Shown here: positions 1 to 58,150 of the stretch, piece by piece | How the letters are laid out: the number at the start of each line of letters is the position of its first letter | Position numbering within the stretch: position 1 is the stretch's first letter | Assembly: GCA_030390025.1 (NCBI GenBank) | Contig: CM059432.1 | Span: 54,128,001-54,192,000, forward strand | DNA: 64,000 nt | Direction: 5' to 3' | Source of the DNA: Squalus acanthias | Taxonomy: Eukaryota | Program-made: the position numbers and the translations under genes | Notes under the pieces: model-generated | What the model was told of the DNA's origin: nothing | Databases searched by the model: none | What the model saw: only the letters and a program-made list of their open reading frames with translations

Positions 1-1385
1 CATTTCTTGACCACGTGGAGTGAATCGAATTGGCTCAAGACTGGCTTCTGTGATGGTGGGGACGTCAAGAGGAGGCCAATATGATCATCCACTCGGCACT
101 TCTGGCTGAAGATGGGTGCAAACGCTTTAACCTTGTCTTTTGCACTCACGTGCTGGGCTCCGCCATCATTGAGGATGGGGATATTCATGGAGCCTCCTCC
201 TCCCGTTAGTTGTTTAATGGTCCACCAGCATTCACGACTGGATGTGGCAGAGCTGCAGAGCTTGATCTGATCCGTTGATTGTGGGATCGCTTAGCTCTGT
301 CCATAGCATGCTGCTTTCGCTGTTTAGCGTTCATGTAGTCCTGTGTTGCAGCCTCCCCAGGTTGGCACCTCATTTTTAGGTACGCCTGGTGCTGCTCCTG
401 GCATGCTCTTCTGCACTCCCCATTGAACCAGCGTTGGTCGCCTAGCTTGGTGGTAATGGTAGAGTGAGGGATATGCCAGGTGATGAGGTTACAGATTGTG
501 GACAGTACAATTCTGCTGCTGCTGATGTCTGACAGTGCCTCATGGATGCCCAGTTTTGCGCTGCTAGATCTGTTCTGAATCTATCCCATTTAGCACAGTG
601 GTAGTGCCACACCACACGATGGAGGGTGTCTTCAGTGTAAAGACGGCTCTTCATCTCCACAAGGACTGTGTGGTGGTCACTGCCTCCAATGCTGTCATGG
701 ACAGATGCATCTGCGACAGGTAGATTGGTGAGCATGAGGTCAGGTAGGTTTTTCTCTCGTGTTGGTTCTCTCACCCCTTGCCGCAGGCCCAGTCTGGCAG
801 CTACGTCCTTCAGGACTCAACCAACTTGGTCAGTCATGGGGCTACCGAGCCACTCTGGTGATGGACATTGAAGTCCCCCCACCCAGAGTACATTCTGTGC
901 CCTTGCTACCCTCAGTGCTTCTTCCAAGTGGTCTTCGACATGGAGGAGTACTGATTCATCAGCTGAGGGAGGGCGGTAGGTGGTAATCAGCAGGAGGTTT
1001 CCATGCTTGATCTGAAGTCATGAGACTTCATGGGGTCCGGAGTCAATGTTGAGAACTCCCAGGGCCACTCCCTCCCGACTGTATACCACTGTGCCGCCAC
1101 CTCTGGTGGGACAGGACCTACCCAGGGATAGTGACGGAGGAGTTTGGGACATTGGCTGAAAGGTATGATTCTGTGAGTATAACTATGTCAGACTGTTGCT
1201 TGACTAGACTGTGTGACCGCACTCCCAATTTTGGCACAAGTCCCCAGGAGGACTTTGCAGGGTCGACTGGGCTGGGTGTGCCGTTGTCATGTCTGAAGCC
1301 GGTTTTATTCTTATTATTGTTTTCTGTAGCAGTTTGTTACAACTGAATGGCTTGCTCGGCCTTTTCAGAGGGCAGTTAAGAGTCA
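1..1385 (-). mobile_element. LINE-B (CR1-superclade non-LTR retrotransposon), 5' part: UTR, APE endonuclease and linker, degenerate; runs off the window
   Basis: Minus ORF 442-774 EPTREKNLPDLMLTN...SDHHTVLV is the APE C-terminal SDH motif; colinear with 47850-49800. Confidence 0.9.
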
Positions 1386-1640
1386 CCACCGCACTCAACT
1401 TCTTCACCTCAGGCTCCATCCAGAGATCTGCAGCAGACATTTGAAGGATCTTGCAGTCGGCTGCCCACAGATGCATGACCGATGTATGACTGATGCCATG
1501 TTTGACAAGTCAGCCAATTATGTCAATTTTGCCACTGATGAAGCCAGTTTGCAGCTCTGGCTGGCTTTCCACAGGTGCAGGGTGTCATCGACTGCACACG
1601 TGTAGCCATGAAAGCACCCCATCATAACCCAGGGCTGTCC
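1382..1640 (+). pseudogene. Harbinger (HARBI1-like) DDE transposase fragment
   Basis: Manual translation VTTALNFFTSGSIQRSAADI*RILQSAAHRCMTDV...AGFPQVQGVIDCTRVAMKAP matches the GFP-x-V-x-G-x-IDCTH motif with the first catalytic Asp. Confidence 0.85.
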
Positions 1641-1649
1641 CCTAAAGAT

Positions 1650-1815
1650 GGGAATGGTAGCATAGTGGTTATGTTACCTGGGCTAGTAAATCAGAGGCCT
1701 GAAACTAATGATCTGGAAATGTGAGGTCAAATCCCACCACCATGGCAGCTGGGGAATTATAAATTCAGTTCATTAAATAAACCTGGAATAAAAAGTTAGC
1801 ATCAGTAATGGTGCT
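1650..1815 (+). mobile_element. tRNA-like 5' head of LINE-B or of a cognate SINE
   Basis: A box TAGCATAGTGG at 1658-1668, B-box-like GGTCAAATC at 1725-1733; homologous to the minus strand of 49915-50021. Confidence 0.8.
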
Positions 1816-6397: not shown

Positions 6398-6684
6398 AAA
6401 GAAAGAAAGAAAGAAAGAAAGAAATATATATTATCTATGTAGCACGTTTCACATCCTCAGGACGTCCAATGAATTACTTGTTGAAGTGTATTAACTGTTA
6501 TTTTGTATGCAGATGCAGCAGCTAATTTGCACATAACAAGGTCCCACAAACAGCAATGGGATAAATAACCAGTTAATCTGTTTGTTTTGGTGGTGTTGGT
6601 TGAGGGATAAATGTTGTCCAGGAAAGTGGGAGCAATCCTCTGCCCGTCTTTGAATAGTGCTATTCGATCTTTTACATCCGCCTG
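6398..6684 (-). mobile_element. Deu-domain SINE (SacSINE1/AmnSINE1-like), 3' half with (CTTT)n tail
   Basis: Minus strand has GATGTAAAAGATC...ATTTATCCCTCAACCAAC...TTGCTGTTTGTGGGACCTTG...GTGCAAATT; homologous to 10481-10802 and 57750-58150. Confidence 0.85.
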
Positions 6685-10201: not shown

Positions 10202-10480
10202 AAAGTGTTCATGTTCACCTCTATACAGACACTATAGAAACTTCTTACCCACCAGTGAAGGTCCAAGCGCTGAAGAAAACAGCGAACCCATTTAATTTCA
10301 GAACAATAGCACATGCTCGATGGCAGCCATCTATGTACAATATAAATTGCGCAGTGTCAGCAACAGGAAAACTGATAGCCAGCTCATAAGAACCAGGTCA
10401 GAGAGCAGTTCTCCAAGATAAATGGCCAATATATCTCTGACAATGACCAGTTATGTTGTGTCTCACTATAGCAACATGAT

Positions 10481-10802
10481 GAAAAAAAATGAAAGACTTG
10501 CATTTCTGTAGCGCCTTTCACGACCACCGGACGTCCCAAAGCGCTTTACAGCCAATGCAGTAATTTTTGAAGTGTAGTCACTGTTGTGATGTAGGAAACA
10601 CGGCAGCCAATTTGTGCATGGCAAGCTCTCACAAACAGCAATGTGATAATGACCAGGTAAGCTGTTTTTAGTGATGTTGATTGAGGGATAAATATTGGCG
10701 AGGACACCGGGGATAACTCCCCTGCTCTTCAAAATATTGCCACTGGATCTTTTACATCCACCTGAGTGGGCAGATGTAGCCTTGGTTTAACATCTCATCC
10801 AA
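10481..10802 (-). mobile_element. Deu-domain SINE
   Basis: Well preserved Deu core and L2-like tail (minus strand GCGCTTTGGGACGTCC...GAAAGGCGCTACAGAAATGCAAGTCTTTC). Confidence 0.9.
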
Positions 10803-25796: not shown

Positions 25797-27412
25797 GAGG
25801 GTGACCGTACGTTCCCGTTTTCCGGGGACAGTCCCTGGATGAGGGACTGTGTTCCCGGGCAAACAATGTCCCCAGAAGAGTCCCCGGTTTGCAAAACTCA
25901 TCCCCGAAGTGTACCCCTGGGCAGTGAGTTTACCCCACCCACCCCCGAGCTGTCAGTTTGTGGCTCTAAGGCTAAATGAAACAACTTGTACAATGGCCAG
26001 AGTGACTCACAGCGCATGCGCAACTGGGCGGTCTTTCTGCGTATGTGCCACTTGTTGTTTCTGAATTACCGGACGGGTTTGTGCTGCTGGATTGTCGCCG
26101 CCGGAAGTGCCTGGAAGCATGGCAACCGGAGTGGATGAGGGAGAGGCTGCGGGAGAGGGCCCTGTCACCTTCACTGGGTGAAGGGGGCTAATCCTGGACA
26201 CTGTGGGGGTGTGGGGGTGGGTGGCAGGTGTGACCTCAGACACTGTGGCGGGGGGGGGGGTGCAGTGTGACCTCCATCACTTGGGGGGAGGGTTCATGTG
26301 TGACCTCAGTCACTGTGTGCAGGGGGGTCAGGTGTGACCTCAGTCACTTTGGGGGGGCGGGGGTGCAGGTGTGACCTCAGTCACTGGGGGGTGAGCAGTC
26401 AGATGTGACTTCAGTCACTTGGGGGAGGGGTCAGATGTGACCTCAGTCCCTGGGGTGGGGTCAGATGCGACCTCAGTCACTGGGGAGGGATCAGATGTGA
26501 CCTCAGTCACTGGGGAGGGATCAGATGTGACCTCAGTCACTGGGGTGGGGTCAGATGTGACCTCAATCACTGTGGGGGGGGGGGGGGGGCAGTGTGACCT
26601 CAGTCACTTTGGGGGGGGGGGGGTGCAGGTGTGACCTCAGTCACTGGGGGGTGAGCAGTCAGATGTGACCTCAGTCACTGGGGTGGGGTCAGATGTGACC
26701 TCAGTCACTTGGGAGGGGTCAGATGTGACCTCAGTCACTGGGGAGGGGTCAGATGTGACCTCAGTCACTTGGGAGGGGTCAGATGTGACCACAGTCACTT
26801 GGGAGGGGTCAGATGTGACCTCAGTCACTGGGGAGGGGTCAGATGTGACCTCAGTCACTTGGGTGGGTTCAGATGTGACCTCAGTCACTGGGGTGGGGTC
26901 AGATGTGACCTCAGTCACTTGGGAGGGGTCAGATGTGACCACAGTCACTTGGGAGGGGTCAGATGTGACCTCAGTCACTGGGGAGGGGTCAGATGTGACC
27001 TCAGTCACTTGGGAGGGGTCAGATGTGACCTCAGTCACTTGGGAGGGGTCAGATGTGACCTCAGTCACTGGGGAGGGGTCAGATGTGACCTCAGTCACTT
27101 GGGTGGGTTCAGATGTGACCTCAGTCACTGGGGTGGGGTCAGATGTGACCTCAGTAACTGGGGAGGGGCCAGGTGTGACCTCAGTCACTGTGTGGAGGAG
27201 GGTCATCACCTCAGTCACTTGGGAGGAGGGGTCAGGTGTGACTTTAGTCATTGTGGTGGGGGGGTGTAGGTGTGACCTCAGTCACTGGTGGGGGAAGGGT
27301 CAGGTGTGACCTCAGTCACTGTTGGGGGGGGGCAGGTAACCTCAGTCACTAGAGGAGAGGGGTCGGGTGTCTGAATGTGCTTCAATAGTGTGTTTCAACA
27401 TTTATTTTGCTA

Positions 27413-38364: not shown

Positions 38365-41170
38365 TTTTTTTTTATTCGCTTATGGGATCTGGGTGTCGCT
38401 GGCAAGGCCAGCATTTATTGTCCATCCCTAGTTGCCCTTGAGAAGGTGGTGGTGAGCCACCTTCTTGAACCGTTGCAGTCTGTAGACTTCGCAAAATACC
38501 CCAGAAACTCGAATAGAACCCTAAAGGAGGTGATTTTTGGATCTTAACACGAATTTGGAATGGTGGGACTGAAATGAAGGAATTTGAGGTCAAAACCTCA
38601 GTTTTGAAGTACATTTTGACAGGATCAAGGAAGAAAAAAAAGCCCTGAGGAAAATGACTTTGGATGATAAGATACCCTTTAAAAAGGGCCATTGGGTAAA
38701 CCTGCAGTCACAGAAACACAGGCTGCGGGAAGGGGTGTGGTGAGGCAGTGGACAGCTTTTGAGAATTGGGACCAAATCAAGCTGTCTGGGAGATGTTTGC
38801 ACTGCAATCCAACCAAGGAGGAAGAGCCTCATCCAAAACATCACAAACACATTCAAAAATGAATAAACCAAGACCCCTTTTGAAATCCCCAGGTCCAGAC
38901 AGGATACTGGAAGTCTGAAAACAATTCCTAACAATAAAACTTCCAGTACACCGTTTCATAGCCCATCATCCCATCAAAAACCGATTAGCCAAGTATCGAC
39001 AGGAACAGTTTAACAAGCCCACCAAAACCTAAGACAAAAGAAGCGAGATTTGGCGCATAGATAGAGGCCCTGTCTCAATGAAAGACATCGATAGCCATCA
39101 GGACAAGTTAACACTAAGTTAAAATCATCAGACTTAACGAGCCCGCCAAAACCTAAGACAAAAGAAGCGAGATTTGGCGCGAAGATAAACAGGCCTCAAC
39201 TGAAACCTAAATCACTTTAACGCGAAATCGATTAGTAAAACGGTTTTGGCGCGAAGAACACAATAGACCTGAACAGTATAATTGAGGGCCTAATCCCCCA
39301 AGAAAGTTAAGCCACACCCGTTCAACACACACGACACGAGGGCGACACCAGAGCCAAGCAACAAGGAACGAGTCACAAGAAGAACCTTCAGCAGGCAGGC
39401 CTAAAGCCACGGGCAAGAAGACACGAGGAACCCGAGAGACACTGTGGTGGTGTCTGTTCAAGCCGTGCAGTTTGTTACAACACTATACTTAAAGTTAGTT
39501 CAAGGCTGTCCAGAGAGGCAGTTTAAAGTTAGTAACAGTACCGAGGCACGCAAGGACAACACGCCACAGTAAGGGGGGTCATCGACGGACCCGACTGGGA
39601 AAAAGGTTCCCAACGCCTCGCAGCAACCAAGGCCCCACGAACCAACCAACAGAACGCCACCGACCAACCAGGTGCGAACCAGGCCGTCGTGACCACCGAA
39701 AGACCAACACCAGGAAAAACCGAAGACACGCAAGTTTCCACGCTACAAACTATTCCTGACTTACCCCTGGGTAAGATTTTCCCTTAAAAAATCCTCTAAA
39801 CCCTACCTCTAACGAAGAAAATTGGGTACTCACCTGATATAATCCAATACGCACCTTACCGCATCAGCGGACAGACCCAAACTGACCTGGAGTGCAGCTG
39901 AAGTCTTCTACCACGTCTGGGGTACGGCAGGTCCCAACAACCAAAAACCCCAGTGAACCCCGAAATCGCGAAATACCTCAACTGTCAAGAACTGTCAAGG
40001 AGTGCTGAGCATTATCCCTGGTCCTCTGGAATCAAACCTAGCTAGGCAGTGGGATCGGGAGGGATAAGGGGTTTTGTATACTGTAATTCTCCCTCGCCTG
40101 TACCGTGTGTTCCCTAACCTGTGTTTAAGTATTAAGTATGTTTTAAGATTGTTTGTGTTGTATTTACCTTTTCTTGAATAAAAGTCAAAGTTCTTTCATC
40201 AAAACCTGTTGTCTACTGCACCTTTGTTCACGACCCCCAAATAAGTCCAAGGTCTAGAATCAAGGGAGTGGTAGCGATTCGAACCGCTCACTGAAGTCAG
40301 AGGCGAAGCTGACCCCACCACACCACCCCCTACAAGTCCGTGTGGTGAAGGTACTCCCACAGTGCTGTTAGGGAGGGCGTTCTAGGATTTTGACCCAGCG
40401 ATGCTGAAGGATCAGCAATATACTTCTAAGTCAGGATGGTGTGTGACTTGGAGGGGAACTTGGAGGTGATGGTGTTCCCATGCGCCTGCTGCCCTTGTCC
40501 TTCTAGGTGGAAGAGGTCGTGGGTTTGGGAGGTGCTGCCGAAGAAGCCTTGGCGACTTGCTGCTGTGCATCTTGTGGTGGAGGGTGTGAACATTTAAGGT
40601 GGTGGATGGGGTGCCAATCAAGCGAGCTGCTTTGTCCTGGATGGTGTCGAGCTTCTTGAGTGCAGTTGGAGCTGCACTAACCAGGCAAGTGGAGCGTATT
40701 CCATCACACTCCATACTTGTGCCTTGTAGATGGTGGAGAGGCTTTGGGGAGTCAGGATGTGAGACACTCGCCGCAGAATACTTCGCCTCTGACCTGCTCT
40801 TGTTGCCACAGTATTTATGTGGCTGGTCCAGTTAAGTTTCTGGTTAATGGTGACCCCCAGGATGTTGATAGTGGGGGATTCGGCGATGCTAATGCCATTG
40901 AATGTCAAGGGGAGGTGGTTAGACTCTCGCTTGTTGGAGATAGTCATTGCCTGGCACTTCTGTGGCACGAATGTTACCTGCCACTTTTCATCCCAAGCCT
41001 GAACGTCGTCCAGGTCTTGTTGCATGCGGGCATGGACTGATTCATTATCTGAGGAGTTGTGAATGGCGCTGAACACTGTGCAGTCATCAGTGAACATCCC
41101 CACTTTTGACCTTATGTTGGAGGGAAGATCATTGATGAAGCAGCTGAAGATGGTTGGGCCTAGTACACTG
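38365..41170 (-). mobile_element. LINE-B 3' portion (RT C-terminus and tail) split by a solo LTR
   Basis: ORF 40618-41103 FTDDCTVF...LGVTINQKLNWTSHI...IYKAQV; 3' tail at 38365-38480 resumes at 40335. Confidence 0.93.
38481..40334 (+). mobile_element. Long solo LTR (1854 bp), Gypsy or ERV type
   Basis: Ends TGTAG...CTACA; TSD AGTC (38477-38480, 40335-40338); AATAAA at 40177; no credible ORF. Confidence 0.85.
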
Positions 41171-41570
41171 CGTTCCTAGTGGTAGAAGCTCACTGGAAGT
41201 GTGGGACTGCAATGGATCAGTCATCCTCTATAACTGCAGGACATGTCATCTCACTAACGTCAACATATGTTGAGTGTGCCTTCACATGGCCAAGTTGCTA
41301 GCCATACAGTGGTAGCCACAATAAATACTATAGAGGATCTTGGGAACGCAGGAATGTATATGACCAGAAAAGATCATTGTGATCCATTTGGCCAACCCAG
41401 TGCCCAGCAAATATCATGTGGGAAAGTTTTTGCTAAGTTGCGCTGGTTTATTCGGCTCAATTCACCTGAAATCGGCGTAACCCATGCAAAAGATCATGGA
41501 ATTATAAGCGCCAATTGCATTCAGCGCAAATTGAGTTACCGTGATCTTTTGCGCGAGTTTAAAAAATATC

Positions 41571-43050: not shown

Positions 43051-43922
43051 TAAGTCTTGACTCTGAGAAGCAAAAGCTTGACTAGGATCTTAAGATCACA
43101 AATGAGGAGGTAAATTGGCTAATAGGCTACACAACTGCTGGTCCTTACCATATTTCAGACTGCGAAAAATAGTAGTGTAATGTATTGAAGAAAGTGCCAG
43201 ACACCCAAATCTACATGCATAATCGTATGGGCCTTGAATCGACTGCGTTAACATATTTTTTAATAATATTTTGTGGGGACTTCATTCCTTTAATTATTGT
43301 GACCTTCTCTAGAGACACTGGGGCGTGCTGACATGACAGTTCTGCATTACGGAGCTCTGGGAGATTCAAATGGCCTATGTCACCTGGCAAATGAAGGGCT
43401 GAAATGAAGAAAAGGTCTTTGTACAATTGGGGAAAAGCCAAATTACTGTCTTTGATGCTGCAATGAAATAAGACCATATATACTTTGATTGATGGGCTAT
43501 AGCATGCCTGCTGTTGCCTTTTCCGTGGTCTGCTAGAACATTGTCTGCTTTATTCCTGTGTGCTTCGTGTTTCTGTTTTTGAGTGATGTAGTTGGCCATC
43601 TGCCCAGCTGCAAAACAAGGCACAAAACTTACCTCTGATGCTTGATTCGCTGCCTCCTGTTCTTACTCATGTCGAGTAATTTTTACTCTGTCTTAAAGAC
43701 CATTTATTACTAATTGTTGCAGAAATGCTGCTACACTTTTCAACAGGTTAAATTAATCTAACTAATTCAGCTATTACTTAATGTCAGTCATTTAATTTTT
43801 ATTCATTCACGGGATGTGGGCGTCACTGGCAAGGCCAGCATTTATTGCCCATCCCTAATTGCCCTTGAGAAGGTGGTGGTGAGCCACCTTCTTGAACCGC
43901 TGCAGTCCGTGTGGTGAAGGTA

Positions 43923-46482
43923 TATTACATAGGATTATATAGGACATGGCTGCAGGAATTCCTCAGGGCAGTGTCCTAGGCCCAACCATCTTCAGCCTGC
44001 TTCATCAATGACCTTCCCTCCATCATAAGGTCAGAAGTGGGGATGTTCGTTGATGACTGCACAGTGTTCAGTGCCATTCGCAACTCCTCAGATAATTAAG
44101 CAGTCCATACCCACATGCAGCAAGACCTGGATGACATTCAGGCTTGGGCTGATAAGTGGCAGGTAACATTCGTGCCACACAAGTGCCAGGCAATGAGTAT
44201 CTCCAATAAGCGAGAGTCTAACCACCGCCCCTTGACATTCAATGGCATTACCATTGCCGAATTCCCCACCATCAATATCCTGGGGGTCACCATTGACCAG
44301 AAACTTAACTGGACCAGCCACATAAATACTGTGGCAACAAGAGCAGGTCAGAGGCTGAGTATTTTGCGGCGAGTGTCTCACCTCCTGACTCCCCAAAGCC
44401 TTTCCACCATCTACAAGACTCAAGTCAGGAGTGTGATGGAATACTCTCCACTTGCCTGGATTAGTGCAGCTCCAACAACACTCAAGAAGCTCAAAACCAT
44501 CCAAGACAAAGCAGCCCACTTGATTGGCACCCCATCCACCACCTTAAACATTCACTCCCTCCACCACCGGCGTACCGTGGCTGCAGTGTGTACCATCTAC
44601 AAGATGCACTGCAGCAACTCACCGAGGCTTCTTCGGTAGCACCTCCCAAACCCGTGACCTCTACCACCTAGAAGGACAAGGGCAGCAGGCGCATGGGAAC
44701 AATACCACCTGCAGGTTCCCCTCCAAGTCACACATCATCCTGAGTTGCAAGTATATCGCCGATCCTTCATCGTCGCTGGGTCAAAATCCTGGAACTCCCT
44801 CCCTAACAGCACTGTGGGAGTACCTTCACCACACGAAATGCAGCGGTTCAGGAAGGCGGCTCACCACCACCTTCTCAAGGGCAACTAGGGATGGGCAATA
44901 AATGCTGGCCTTGCCAGCAACGCCCACATCCCATGAACGAATTAAAAAAAAACACAGCACAGAAACAGGCCATTCGGCCCAACCAGTCCATGCCAGCGTT
45001 TATGCTCCACTCGAGCCTCCTCTTGTCTTTCCTCATCTAACTCTATCAGCATAACCCTCTATTCCCTTCTCCCTCATATGCTTATCTAGCCTCCCCTTAC
45101 ATGCATTTATACTATTCGCTTCAACCACTCCCTGTGGAAGCGAGTTCCACATTCTCACCACCCTCTGGGTAAAGAAGCTTCTTCTGAATTCCCTATTTGA
45201 TTTCTTGGTGACTATCTTATATTGATGGCCTCTAGCTTTGCTTTTCCCCACAAGTGGAAACACTCTCTCTGTATCCACTCTATCAAAACCTTTCATAATT
45301 TTAAAGACCTCTATTAGGTCACTCTTTAGCCTTCTCTTTCCAACAGAAAAGAGACCCAGCCTGTTGATCCTTTCCTGATAGATATACCATTGCATTTCTG
45401 GTATCACCCTTTGTAAATCTTTTTTGTACCCTCTCCAGTGCCGCTATATTCTTTTTATAACATGGCGACCAGAATTGTACACAATACTCCAAGTGTGGTC
45501 TAACCAAGGTTCGATACAAGTTTAGCATAACTTCACTACTTTTAAATTCTATCCCTCTAGAAATAAACCCCAGTGCTTGCTTTGCTTTTTTATGGCCTTA
45601 TTAACCTGCATTACTACTTCTAGTGATTTGTTTATTGCTACTTTGAGATCCTTTGCTCTTCTACCCCATTTAGATTCTTATTTTCCAAGTAATATGTGAC
45701 TTCCTTATTTTTCTTACCAAAATGTAATATCTCACATTTATCTGTGTTGAAATTCATTTGCCAATTATATGTCCATTCTGCAAGTTTATTAATGTCTTCT
45801 TGTAATTTGTTGCAGGTCTTACTCAGTATTGACCATCTCCCCAATTTTGTGTCATCCGCAAATTTAGAAATAGTGCTTTTGATTCCATAGTCTAAATCGT
45901 TAATATAAATTGTGAACAACACTGGTCCCAGATCTGATCCTTGTGGGACCCCACTTTCCACCTTCTGCCACTCTCAATAGCTACCCTTTACCCCTAATCT
46001 CTGCTTTCTATCTTGACGCCAGCCAGCTATCCATTCTGCTACTTGTCTTCTGACTTTGCATTCTCTGACCTTATTCATTAGTCTATTATGTTGCACCTTA
46101 TCGAAGGCTTTTTGGAAATCTAGATAAATTACATCTACTACATTACCCTTGTCTACTCTCTCTGTTACCTCATCAAAGAATACAATGAGTTTGGTCAAGC
46201 AAGACTTTCCCTTTTGAAATCCATGCTGACTATTCTTTACTATGTTTATGGTTTCTAGATGTTCTTCTATTTTTTCCTCTGGTAGGGATTCCATTATTTT
46301 TCCTACCACCGATGTTAAGCTGACTGGTCTATAGTTCCCTGGACATGTTCTATCTCCCTTCTTAAACATATATATGTTAGCTAACTGCCAGTCCTCTGGC
46401 ACTACACCTTTTTCTAACAAATTATTAAATATGTGTAATAGTGAATCTGCAATCTCTTCCCTAGATTCTTTTAAAATGCGCG
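43923..46482 (-). mobile_element. CR1 LINE (RT to tail) inserted in LINE-B and itself split in its tail
   Basis: ORFs 45033-46492; tail TACATAGGATTATATAGGA at 43927 continues as CACAGCACAGAAAC at 44953; TSD GGTA. Confidence 0.9.
43947..44952 (+). mobile_element. LINE-B 5'-truncated copy inserted in the CR1 tail
   Basis: ORF 44115-44639 RT C-terminus; ends AATAAATGCTGGCC...CATGAACGAATTAAAAAAAAA. Confidence 0.95.
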
Positions 46483-48378
46483 GTACTCCCACAATGCTGT
46501 TATGTAGAGAGTTCTAGGATTTTGACCCAGCGACAATGAAGGAACGGCAATATATTTCCAAGTCAGGATGATGTGTGACTTGGAGAGGAACGTGGAGGTA
46601 GTGGTGATCCCATATGCCTGCGGCCCTTGTCCTTCTAGATGGTAAAGGTCGCGGGTTTGGGAAATGCTGTCGCAGAAGCTTTGGCAAGTTGCTGCAGTGC
46701 ATCTTGTAGATGGTACACACTGCAGCCATGGCGTGCCAATGGTGAAGGGAGTGAATGTTTAAGGTGGTGGATGGGGGGCCGATCAAATGGGCTGCTTTTT
46801 CCTGGATGGTATCGAGCTTCTTGGAGCTGCACTCATCCAGGCAAGTGAAGAGTATTCCATCACACTCCTGACTTGTGCCAAGTAGATGGTGGAAAGGCTT
46901 TGGGGAGTCAGAATACCCAGCTTCTGACCTGCTCTTGTAGCCACAGTGTTTTTGTGGCTAGCCCAGTTACGTTTATGGTCAATAGTGACCCTCAAGATGT
47001 TGATGGTGGGGGATTCGGTGATGGTAATGCCATTGAATGTCAAGGGGCAGTGGTTAGACGCTTGCTTGTTGGAGATAGTCATTGCCTGGCACTTGTGTGG
47101 CACAAATGTTACCTGCCACTTATCAGCCCAAGCCTGAACGTTATCCAGGTCTTGCTGAGGAGTTGCGAATGGAACTGAACACTGTGTAATCATCAGCAAA
47201 CATCCCTACTTCTGACCTTATGATGGACAGAAGGTCATTGATGAAGCAGCTGAAGATGATTTGGCCTAGGACACTGCACTGAGGAACTCCTGCAGCAATG
47301 TCCTGGGCTGAGATGATTGGCCTCCAACAACCATAACTATCTTCCTTTGTGCTAGGTATGACTCCAGCCAGTGGAGAGTTTTCTCCCTGATTCCCATTGA
47401 CTTCAATTTTACTATGGCTCCTTGAGTCAAATGCTGCCTTAATGTCAAGGACAGTCATTCTCGACTTACCTCTGGAATTCAGCTCTTTTGTCCATGTTTG
47501 GACCAAGGCTTTAGTGAGGTCTGGAGCCGAGTGGTCCTGGTGAAACCCAAACTGAGCATCAGTGAGCAGGTTATTGGTGAGTAAGTGTCACTTGGTAGCA
47601 CTGTCAATGACCCCTTCCATCACTTTGCTGATGATTGAGAGTAAACTGATGCGGCAGTAATTGGCCGGATTGGAGTTGTCCTGCTTTTTGTGGACTGGGC
47701 AATTTTCCACTTTGTTAGGCAGATGCCAGTGTTGTAGCTGTACTAGAATAGTTTAGCTAGATGCACGGCTAGTTCTGGTGCACACGTCTTCAGCACTGCA
47801 GCCGGGATGTTGTCAGGGCCCATAGCCTTTGCTGTATCCAGTGTGCTCAGCCGTTTCTTGATATCATGTGGAGTGAATCGAATTGGCTGAAGACTGGATT
47901 CTGTGATAGTGGGGACCTCAGGAGTAGGCCGAGATGGATCATCAACTCTTGTCTTTTGCACTCACCTACCGGGGTCCGCCATCTTTGAGGATAGGGATGT
48001 TCATGGAGCCTCCTCCTCCCGTTAGTTATTTAATTGTCCACCACCATTCATGACTGGATGTGGCAGGACTGCAGAGCTTTGATTTGATCCGTTAGCTGTG
48101 GGATCGCTCAGCTCTGTCTATAGTATGCTACTTCCACTGTTTAGCATACATGTGTGTATCTTCACCTGGTTGGCACCTCATTTTTAGGTATGCCTGATGC
48201 TGCTCCTGGAAGGCTCTTCGACACTCCTCATCGAACCAGGCTTGGTCAACTGGTTTAATGGTAATGGTAGAGTGAGAGATATGACAGGCCATGAGGTTAC
48301 AGACTGTGGTGGAATATAATTCTTCTGCTGCTGATGGCCCACAACGCATCATGGATGCCCAGTTTTGAGCTGCTAGAT

Positions 48379-48931
48379 TTTTAAAAATTCATTCCTGGGA
48401 TGTGGCGTCTCTGGCAAGGCCAGCATTTATTGTATATCCCTAATTGGAATAGAGGGTTAAGCTGATAGAGTTAGATGAGGAAAGATGGTAGGAGGCTCGA
48501 GTGGAGCATAAACGCCAGCATGGACTGGTTGGGCCGAATGGCCTGTTTCTGTGCTGTATATTTTTTTTATTCGTTCATGAGATGTGGGTGTCGCTGGCAA
48601 GGCCAGCATTTATTGCCCATCCCTAGTTGCCCTTGAGAAGGTGGCGGTGAGCCGCCTTCCTGAACCGCTGCAGTCGCGTGGTGAAGGTACTCCTATAGTG
48701 CTGTTAAGAAGGGAGCTCCAGGATTTTGACCCAGTGACGATGAAGGAACAGTAATATATTTCCAAGTCAGGATGTTGTGTGACTTGGAGGGGAAATTGGA
48801 AGTGATGGTGTTCCCATGTGCCTGCTGCCCTTGTTCTTCTAGGTGGTAGCGGTCGCAGGTTTGGGAGGTGCTGCCAAAGAAGCCTAGGAGTGTTGCTGCA
48901 GTGCATCTTGTAGATGGTACACACTGCAGCC
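48379..48931 (-). mobile_element. Chimeric insert: LINE-B 3' end, then antisense CR1 tail, then a second LINE-B tail
   Basis: Interrupts GCTAGAT/CTGTTCTGAATC of the host; 48445-48931 is an inverted homolog of 44580-45065. Confidence 0.85.
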
Positions 48932-50035
48932 ATCTGTTCTGAATCTATCCCATTTAACACGGTGGTAGTGCCGCACAACATGATGGAGGGTGTCTTCAGT
49001 GTGAAGACTGGACCTTGTCTCCACAAGGACTGTGCTGTGGTCACTCCTACCAATGCATCTGCGACAGGTTGATTGGTGAGGGCGAGTCAAGTAGTTTTTT
49101 CCCTCATGTTGGTTCTCTCAACACCTGCCCCAAGCCCAGTCTGGCAGTTATGTCCTTCAGTACTCGTCCAGCTTGGTACGTAGTGGTGCTACCGATCCAC
49201 TCTTGGTGATGGACACTGAAGTCCCCCATCCAGAGTAAATTCTGTTCTCTTGCTACCCTCAGTGCTTCTTCCAAGTGGTGTTCAGCACGGAGGAGTACTG
49301 ATTCATCAGCTGAGGGAAGGCGATAGGTGGTAATCAGCAGGAGGTGTCCTTTCCCATGTTTGACCTGATGCCTTCAGACTTCATTGGTCCAGAGTCAATG
49401 TTGAGGACTCCCAGGGCCACTCCATCCCAACTGTATACCACTGTCCCGCCACCTCTGGTGGGTCTGTCCTGCGATGAGACAGGACATACCCAGGGATGGT
49501 GATGGAGGAGTCTGGAACGTTGGCTGAAAGGTATGATTCTGTGAATATGACTATGTCAGGCTGTTGCTTGACTAGTCTGTGGGACAGCGCTCCAAATTTT
49601 GGCACAAGTCCTCAGATGTTAGTGAGGAGGACTTTGCAGGGTCGACTGGGCTGGGTGTGCCTTTGTCGTGTCCAAATCCGATGCCTAGGTCGATGCCGGG
49701 TGGTCCGTCTGCTTTTTTTATTATTATACTTTGTCATTGCAGTTTGATACAAATGAGTGTCTTGCTAGGTGACTTCAGAGGGCAGTTAAGAGTCAACAAC
49801 ATTGCTTTTGGTCTGGAGTCACATATACAGGTCAGGATGGCAGATCTGCTTCCCAAAAGGACATTAGTGAACCAGATGGGTTTTTATGACAAACCGGTAG
49901 TTACATAGTCACCTTTATTCCAGATTTATTTAATTAACTGAATTGAAGTTCGTCAGCTGCCATGGTGGCATTTTAACTCATCCAGATCATTTGTCCAGGC
50001 CTCTGGATTACTAGTCCAGTATGAGGCCTGACTCA

Positions 50036-57749: not shown

Positions 57750-58150
57750 AAAGAAAGAAAACAGAGAAAAAGAACTTGCATTTCATGACCTCAGGCTGTC
57801 TCAAAGCGCTTTACAGCCAATTAAGTACTTTTGAAGTGTAGCCACGGTTGTAATGTAGGAAATGCAGCAACCAATTTGCACATAGCAAGCTCCCACAAAC
57901 AGCAATTAAATAAATCATTTGTTTTTATGTGTTGGTTGAGGGTTAGATATTAGCCAGGACATGGAGAGAAGTCCCTGATCTTCTTTGAATGGTGCCGTGG
58001 GATCTTTTACGTCTACCTGAAAGGCCTTGGTTTAACATCTCATCCGGAAGATGGCACCTCCGACAGTGCAGCACTTCCTCAGTACTGCATAGAAGTGTCA
58101 GCCTAGATTATGTGCTCAAGTCTCTGGAGTGGAACTTGAACCCACAACCT
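57750..58150 (-). mobile_element. Deu-domain SINE, nearly full length
   Basis: Minus-strand B box GGTTCAAGTTCC near 58140, Deu core, L2-like tail. Confidence 0.9.

Follow-up and report, generated by a model that had tools for sequence, protein, structure and literature searches.

What transcribes a long interspersed nuclear element (LINE) whose first bases resemble a tRNA? The question is posed by a stretch of 64,000 nt from Squalus acanthias (GCA_030390025.1, contig CM059432.1, positions 54,128,001 to 54,192,000; the window). On its minus strand an initial annotation, made from the letters alone, had placed a LINE that RNA polymerase III (Pol III) would drive from a captured promoter of the type found in short interspersed nuclear elements (SINEs). 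Mapping to a family consensus identifies this element as a decayed, nested copy of a Zenon LINE, now in three pieces. In the family, a tRNA-derived head, a leader, an open reading frame (ORF) for an APE endonuclease and a reverse transcriptase (APE-RT) and an A-tail make up a 3.3-kb unit that inserts by LINE-type retrotransposition. Transcription of this coding element by Pol III is, to judge from its sequence, the best explanation and a fairly probable one. The structural claims of the annotation hold and its interpretation as a whole is partly supported: the SINE-type promoter on a LINE is borne out as structure, and the polymerase and the non-AUG or cap-independent start remain inferred.

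The consensus, scripted from 22 full-length copies, is 3,311 nt long (c-numbers are its positions). It describes a LINE with a single APE-RT frame of 973 codons, preceded by 327 nt and no ORF1, and with A-rich tails in full-length copies; PF14529 and PF00078 match in the ORF of copy L031. The outer limits first proposed (43795 to 50021) are right, as the family mapping spans 50021 to 43796. Also correct was the short way from head to APE, whose start (KVLLTN) lies at 49635, 386 nt below 50021. The suggested absence of ORF1 is confirmed by copies picked through their APE sequence, which extend into neither ORF1 nor any common upstream sequence. The RT shares a 19-row clade (support 100/99) with proteins of moth, beetle, crab and lancelet and separates from the canonical CR1 of the window. 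The tree holds no named Zenon protein; what gives the family its name is agreement with published consensuses at the 5′ end. Over its first 400 nt, SquAca_Zenon-1 departs from the family only at subfamily sites seen among the copies. According to the available text of Stuart et al. 2026 (PMC13343379), elasmobranch Zenon belongs to the CR1 group, measures about 3.3 kb, lacks ORF1, encodes APE and RT and ends in a poly-A tail. Since that text gives the absence of ORF1 as universal in Zenon, its absence here is not unusual. A first metagenome scan found no relative.

The head of the family has the layout of a type-2 Pol III promoter, with an A box, a B box and a purine start just 5′ of the A box. 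Its start is sharp, coincides with the 5′ edge of the tRNA and precedes the A box by 8 nt: of 30 heads, 29 have G or A at position 1, and the bases upstream are mixed. The Rfam tRNA model RF00005 matches the head in one of three genomic copies scanned (L246; 26.3 bits, E=0.067, below the gathering score of 29), fitting positions 7 to 64 with a single insertion at the variable arm. For the decayed window copy, ARAGORN and Rfam gave no tRNA match. With its threshold lowered, ARAGORN does report the family head; since it then also reports many false tRNAs in control contigs, this result was not counted. The stem-loop noted at 50019-50003 (minus strand) is present there as the anticodon arm. The degenerate B box reported with it is true of the window copy (49979-49970) only, the family B box being canonical and of a form also present in tRNA-Gln and tRNA-Thr genes of the S. 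acanthias genome.

From which tRNA the head derives is less sharply defined. The annotation had named tRNA-Ser(AGA); the tRNA likeness stands, and alignment to host tRNAs gives Ser(AGA) no clear lead. Among the five host isotypes compared, summed scores were 31.1-31.6 for Ser(AGA), 20.7-32.7 for Gln, 28.5-30.0 for Thr(AGT), 24.5-27.0 for Lys and 19.9-24.4 for Cys. By eye, Ser is favoured by a long paired variable arm and by the 5′ end of the RhiTyp consensus; the alignment scores do not separate Ser, Gln and Thr. The source may be either an older SINE or a tRNA directly. A second hairpin (about 49998-49982 in the window copy) is identical to the anticodon arm at 18 of 21 positions; its origin as a simple duplication of that arm is not established, other sharks having a different, still paired sequence there. 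In MetaSINEs, a 66-bp Meta domain follows a tRNA(Thr)-like head (PMC4824008), and four short words of the leader body, sought in one supplement of that paper, gave few matches in V- and CORE-SINE rows and none in Meta rows. Separately, long tandem arrays of tRNA genes were seen at C21:3336225-3402767 and C26:41657435-41694604 and on C889, C2208 and C29, with periods of about 600 nt for alternating Gln(CTG)/Gln(TTG), about 2.06 kb for Thr(AGT), about 1.7 kb for Ser(AGA) and about 1.78 kb for Lys(TTT).

Head and LINE could still be two elements lying side by side. The head itself is not a chance sequence, since its pattern has 14,323 matches at no more than one mismatch in the 3.7-Gb genome and the reversed control has none. 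The top 40 of 7,259 candidates with head and APE, a sample biased towards full coverage, all start at the head, and the flanks of the 29 other loci inspected in this sample are unrelated except for one duplicated pair. Selection by APE alone gave 29 further copies (24 distinct after merging six with one shared flank), of which 10 go all the way to the head start, 12 break off at differing points within the leader and two begin later. Just one pair of this set has flanking sequence in common as far as the two junctions, and this sequence resembles a CR1 host. Selection by a leader word (the first 30 of 2,675 exact matches, in chromosome order) gave 22 copies reaching the head start (21 aligned, one by eye) and 27 continuing into the ORF. 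The leader-APE junction is identical in all aligned copies. The family consensus and 5′ ends that the annotation had asked for therefore show copies that share the head start or are truncated within the same leader, with no other 5′ end. Full-length copies mostly lacking the head, the outcome it had tied to chance adjacency, were looked for and not found, and chance adjacency is largely refuted. It had also expected target-site duplications outside the head. A direct search in 30 head-to-tail copies failed, scores barely exceeding those of mismatched pairs; host repeats give the answer instead. Half of the 28 long head-to-tail copies have as their host a repeat that recurs elsewhere; of these 14 testable copies, 8 show the repeat resuming past the tail within -14 to +8 nt. 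Because it does so, head and ORF must have inserted as one unit, with short variable duplications.

Short forms of the family bear on the same point. The first 30 exact head matches comprise 9 that run straight into APE, 2 with a partial ORF, 18 in which the leader is joined to the tail and one bare head. The breakpoints of the short forms vary (c240-384 to c3168-3253), some lying inside the ORF start, and one is common to three copies, which suggests that SINE-like families arise repeatedly by internal deletion and that some amplify. SINE2 elements are short and non-coding; the full 3.3-kb element is neither, and only its deleted derivatives are both. These counts could also be read as chance adjacency, or as repeated template-switch chimeras, of an independent SINE with an ordinary 5′-truncated LINE, given that short head-and-tail forms outnumber long ones (18 versus 11) and that nesting within the family is common. 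We consider this highly improbable, because the junction is constant, truncation points spread along the leader, host repeats continue on the far side of the entire unit, the joined structure recurs in five species and the breakpoints scatter as deletions would make them.

Contigs from four sequencing runs, labelled as four organisms, span the whole element, and in three of these runs 50, 591 and 719 contigs cross one common 5′ edge, beyond which their sequence is unrelated. Small shares of the element also occur in a metatranscriptome and a coral metagenome. The type of the runs is a guess (possibly RNA), and their contigs carry no information on start, strand or cap and so say nothing on transcription. 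As a separate observation, L096 and L097 (=L037) hold two independent Zenon insertions near the same place, a T-rich stretch, in different CR1-like host copies, possibly a target preference.

Published Zenon consensuses extend the structure beyond S. acanthias. These comparisons were made by eye over the first 400 nt of seven elasmobranch rows from five species, 2.9-3.3 kb long (PMC13343379). The head starts all seven rows, which cover the species of SquAca_Zenon-1, CarCar_Zenon-1, RhiTyp_Zenon-1, ScyCan_Zenon-1 and HypSab_Zenon-1. The A and B boxes are kept in the five shark and ray species while spacers vary, the B box being perfect in three species and one base short in the stingray row; the leader body of about 150 nt is near-identical across all five. 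The hagfish and coelacanth Zenon rows are headless and contain runs of four T (T4). The closest genomic locus in the same RT clade, L144, is likewise Zenon-like and headless, with 17 T4 runs versus 15.9 expected and an in-frame Met. Its GC-rich leader (L144:100-560) has a repeated block, which we take to recall the ribozyme-bearing 5′ modules of RTE elements; Rfam gave no match.

The family is thus already catalogued; a SINE-type promoter on it is apparently undescribed. The main text of PMC13343379 has no mention of tRNA, Pol III, polymerase III or promoter, nor does tRNA occur in the supplement text searched, and the available parts do not describe the head, the scarcity of T-runs, the lack of a start codon or the SINE-like derivatives. 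The accessible portions of PMC5499810, PMC11481361, PMC4824008 and 10.1101/443036 contain nothing on a Zenon tRNA head. A literature search, over partial texts, found no Pol III-driven autonomous LINE and no tRNA head on Zenon; Repbase, Dfam, subscription journals or bioRxiv supplements may describe one.

Vertebrate Pol III terminates at four or more T. Over 3.3 kb, the sense strand of the consensus has no T4 run, compared with 15 of A4, 11 of C4 and 8 of G4. Runs of three T number 5 versus 11.6 expected under codon shuffling (P=0.006, ratio 0.43), and 5-mers with at least four T number 2 versus 9.6 (P=0.016, ratio 0.21). None of the 37 relatives with long intact frames has ratios as low (minima 0.72 and 0.62), and each of 80 metagenomic relatives of the CR1 group has at least two T4 runs. 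In the genome itself, CR1 segments lying in the same loci served as controls: they carry 3.75 T4 per kb (observed/expected 1.37, 105 segments) versus 0.25 per kb (0.18, 148 segments) for the Zenon family. Avoidance of splice acceptors fails to explain the depletion, as pyrimidine tracts and C-rich words are not depleted on the sense strand. Among shared variants, none creates a T4 at 40 one-step sites, in a test without power. The protein of the family ORF is also poor in Phe (1.8% overall and 2.4% in the last 509 aa; the median is 3.4% in 120 homologues of varying extent), its Phe codons being 15 TTC and 3 TTT.

How would such an RNA be translated? The annotation saw no in-frame ATG near the ORF start, and in the family the first ATG of the 973 open codons is codon 287, beyond the APE domain, so that initiation must be non-canonical. 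The length of the A-rich linker shifts the frame between subfamilies and between species, which places initiation after the linker, in the Arg-rich extension. An out-of-frame ATG (by one base) lies about 80 nt above APE in published consensuses; 49 of 90 genomic copies have ATA there and 19 have ATG. A frameshifted mini-ORF from this ATG is not supported, shared non-CpG changes below it being silent in the main frame no less often. The ORF was used and under selection in the copying lineage, as its shared non-CpG variants are mostly synonymous (49 versus 32 non-synonymous). R2 offers a precedent for cap-independent translation of a LINE in the available text of PMC12203849.

A division of labour would make this initiation on uncapped RNA unnecessary: Pol III would produce the RNA that is copied, Pol II, reading through some copies, would yield transcripts whose protein acts in trans, and the element would behave as a very long SINE. 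The 18 non-coding heads among 30, together with internal deletions in some long copies, suggest that trans-mobilisation is efficient. We nevertheless think this scenario improbable, since the excess of synonymous variants is easiest to understand if the copied RNA encodes its own protein, and since a Pol II transcript would still be without an in-frame ATG.

Several points weigh against Pol III transcription. The absence of T4 taken alone is weakly significant or not significant, depending on the null model (P=0.12 for codon shuffling, 0.17 for a dinucleotide model, 0.24 for third-position resampling and 0.017 for base shuffling). An L2 control, too small to carry weight, is also low, with one run in 722 bp (observed/expected 0.42). 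As the copies stem from few masters, the T-run count amounts to about one evolutionary sample. The tail, with AATAAA and an A-run, fits Pol II equally. An internal ribosome entry site is unsupported, no segment of the leader folding better than shuffles (z -0.27, -1.59 and -0.85). The available text of Kojima 2024 (PMC10886601) assigns LINEs to Pol II and SINEs to Pol III, holds Pol III unfit for long coding elements and gives about 1.3 kb or less as the limit that its processivity sets on such elements. Finally, the polymerase, the cap state and the translation of the element are all inferred from its sequence.

The chief rival accordingly keeps the captured SINE or tRNA head and has Pol II start the full LINE at the same edge, using an internal promoter; the boxes would then serve only the short derivatives, or act as an RNA structure or chromatin element. 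In its favour, the literature treats LINEs as Pol II units and takes bipartite LINE derivatives without a head to be Pol II transcripts (PMC5786205 and PMC10886601, in the parts available), the tail has its poly(A) signal and A-run, the absence of T4 by itself gives only P=0.12 and the second hairpin keeps its pairing across species by eye, suggesting a role at the RNA level. What makes us regard it as possible though unlikely is that it leaves unexplained both the T-specific depletion of the ORF, absent from CR1 of the same genome and from the 80 relatives, and a start exactly at the tRNA edge. In addition, the eight upstream ATGs and three AATAAA of the leader ill suit a capped, scanned mRNA.

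With Pol III, events could have run as follows. An ancestral elasmobranch Zenon would have swapped its promoter for a SINE-type tRNA head. Once TFIIIC had bound the A and B boxes within the element, Pol III would transcribe all of it from position 1, stopping at the first T-run in the 3′ flank; selection for full read-through would have cleared the sense strand of T-runs. Translation of the uncapped RNA would begin by internal, non-AUG (or recoded) initiation just past the A-rich linker, and the protein would copy its own RNA back via target-primed reverse transcription. Zenon would then be an autonomous coding retrotransposon that relies on Pol III from end to end, with uncapped RNA and no AUG, is kept across sharks and rays, has purged its terminators and spawns SINEs by deletion. 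We give this complete reading a probability of roughly 0.55.

The window copy, all on the minus strand, preserves most of this structure in decayed form. Its three pieces (c26-1161 at 50021-48932, c1160-3185 at 48378-46482 and c3182-3308 at 43922-43796) are separated by nested Zenon and CR1 fragments and rejoin to within a few bases. The head (49956-50021) lacks the first 25 nt of the family, the A box among them; the family head to which it maps matches RF00005 in L246. The rest of the leader (49636-49955) comprises an AT-rich spacer, the body of about 150 nt, the A-rich linker and the Arg-rich in-frame extension without ATG. The first part of the ORF (48932-49635) encodes the APE endonuclease to c1161, interrupted by stops and frameshifts (PF14529 on the matching part of L031). 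The second (46482-48378) holds the linker, the reverse transcriptase (PF00078 on L031) and the C-terminal region. The third piece (43796-43922) contains the ORF end, a 65-nt 3′ untranslated region (UTR) with AATAAA and the A-rich tail.

Between the first two pieces lies a nested insertion (48379-48931, minus) composed of a Zenon 3′ fragment (c2939-3311), an antisense CR1 tail and a short Zenon tail (c3243-3303). Between the last two are a canonical CR1-type 3′ fragment of a different family (44951-46481, minus; four T4 runs in 1.5 kb) and a 5′-truncated Zenon copy in the opposite orientation (43941-44950, plus; c2303-3311). The junction of Zenon tail and antisense CR1 tail occurs twice, at 44578-45065 (plus) and 48446-48932 (minus), inverted, 3.4 kb apart and 90% identical; either the segment was duplicated locally, or a read-through copy landed in the main element.

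Elsewhere in the window, the second copy cited in the annotation does carry the same UTR-APE join: 3-1389 (minus) corresponds to c274-1731, and the copy runs on to c3273 beyond the window, with an internal deletion. A complete head described as a free copy lies at 1650-1807 (plus; c1-152). It does include the A box as claimed; it is probably not free, because it has no tail and Harbinger-like sequence stands at both ends of the second copy, whose inverted head it therefore probably is. The 260 nt beside it were considered as a 5′ transduction and rejected, being the Harbinger-like host sequence that also flanks the 3′ end of the copy. A piece of this abundant repeat (5,329 candidates) at 1390-1633 hosts the second copy and flanks both its ends; from its motifs we take it to be a PIF/Harbinger transposase. 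The same Zenon family also left a 5′-truncated fragment at 40335-41171 (minus; c2330-3200) and an isolated tail at 38366-38483 (minus; c3194-3311). Other repeats include a tandem array at 26215-27370 (30-nt period, about 30 copies, long open frames on both strands) and a short repeat at 6513-6594, 10466-10786 and 57862-57943, which resembles the shark Deu-type SINE. Outside the window, a 281-codon open frame adjoins a Zenon copy at L057:1713-2558 and resembles what we take to be a Penelope-type reverse transcriptase.

If Pol III does transcribe Zenon, a 3.3-kb LINE would break the rule that pairs LINEs with Pol II and SINEs with Pol III, and it would supply a natural case in which a Pol III transcript encodes a vertebrate protein. 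It would also reveal a direct route of SINE birth, namely loss of the ORF from a parent equipped with the head beforehand. Testing the claim would be cheap.

Known systems each share part of this design; what follows draws on the available text of the papers cited. Short Zenon derivatives have the anatomy of tRNA SINEs (SINE2) and of bipartite LINE-derived SINEs, with a tRNA head containing A and B boxes and a LINE tail (Kojima 2018, PMC5786205). Unlike SINE2, the long Zenon form encodes its own enzyme, and whereas Kojima's model of bipartite SINEs adds the head after deletion of the LINE, the coding parent of Zenon already has it. Bipartite derivatives are listed in that paper only for RTE, Ingi, Vingi and R2. 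R2 resembles Zenon as a LINE with one ORF whose translation is believed to do without a cap; it differs in being co-transcribed with rRNA, released by a ribozyme like that of hepatitis delta virus, site-specific and without a tRNA head (PMC12203849). The TRIMp3 elements Cassandra, Helenus and Ajax have, like the Zenon head, Pol III promoters derived from small RNAs on retroelements other than SINEs, but they are of long-terminal-repeat type, non-coding and at most 1,263 bp (PMC10886601). A precedent for the Zenon head is RTE-1_DAn with its relatives, LINEs for which one sentence of PMC5786205 reports a tRNA-like sequence. These belong to the RTE clade and are not named in the other literature searched; that sentence leaves the position of the sequence, its promoter function and the polymerase unstated, whereas in Zenon the head stands at position 1 of a coding LINE.

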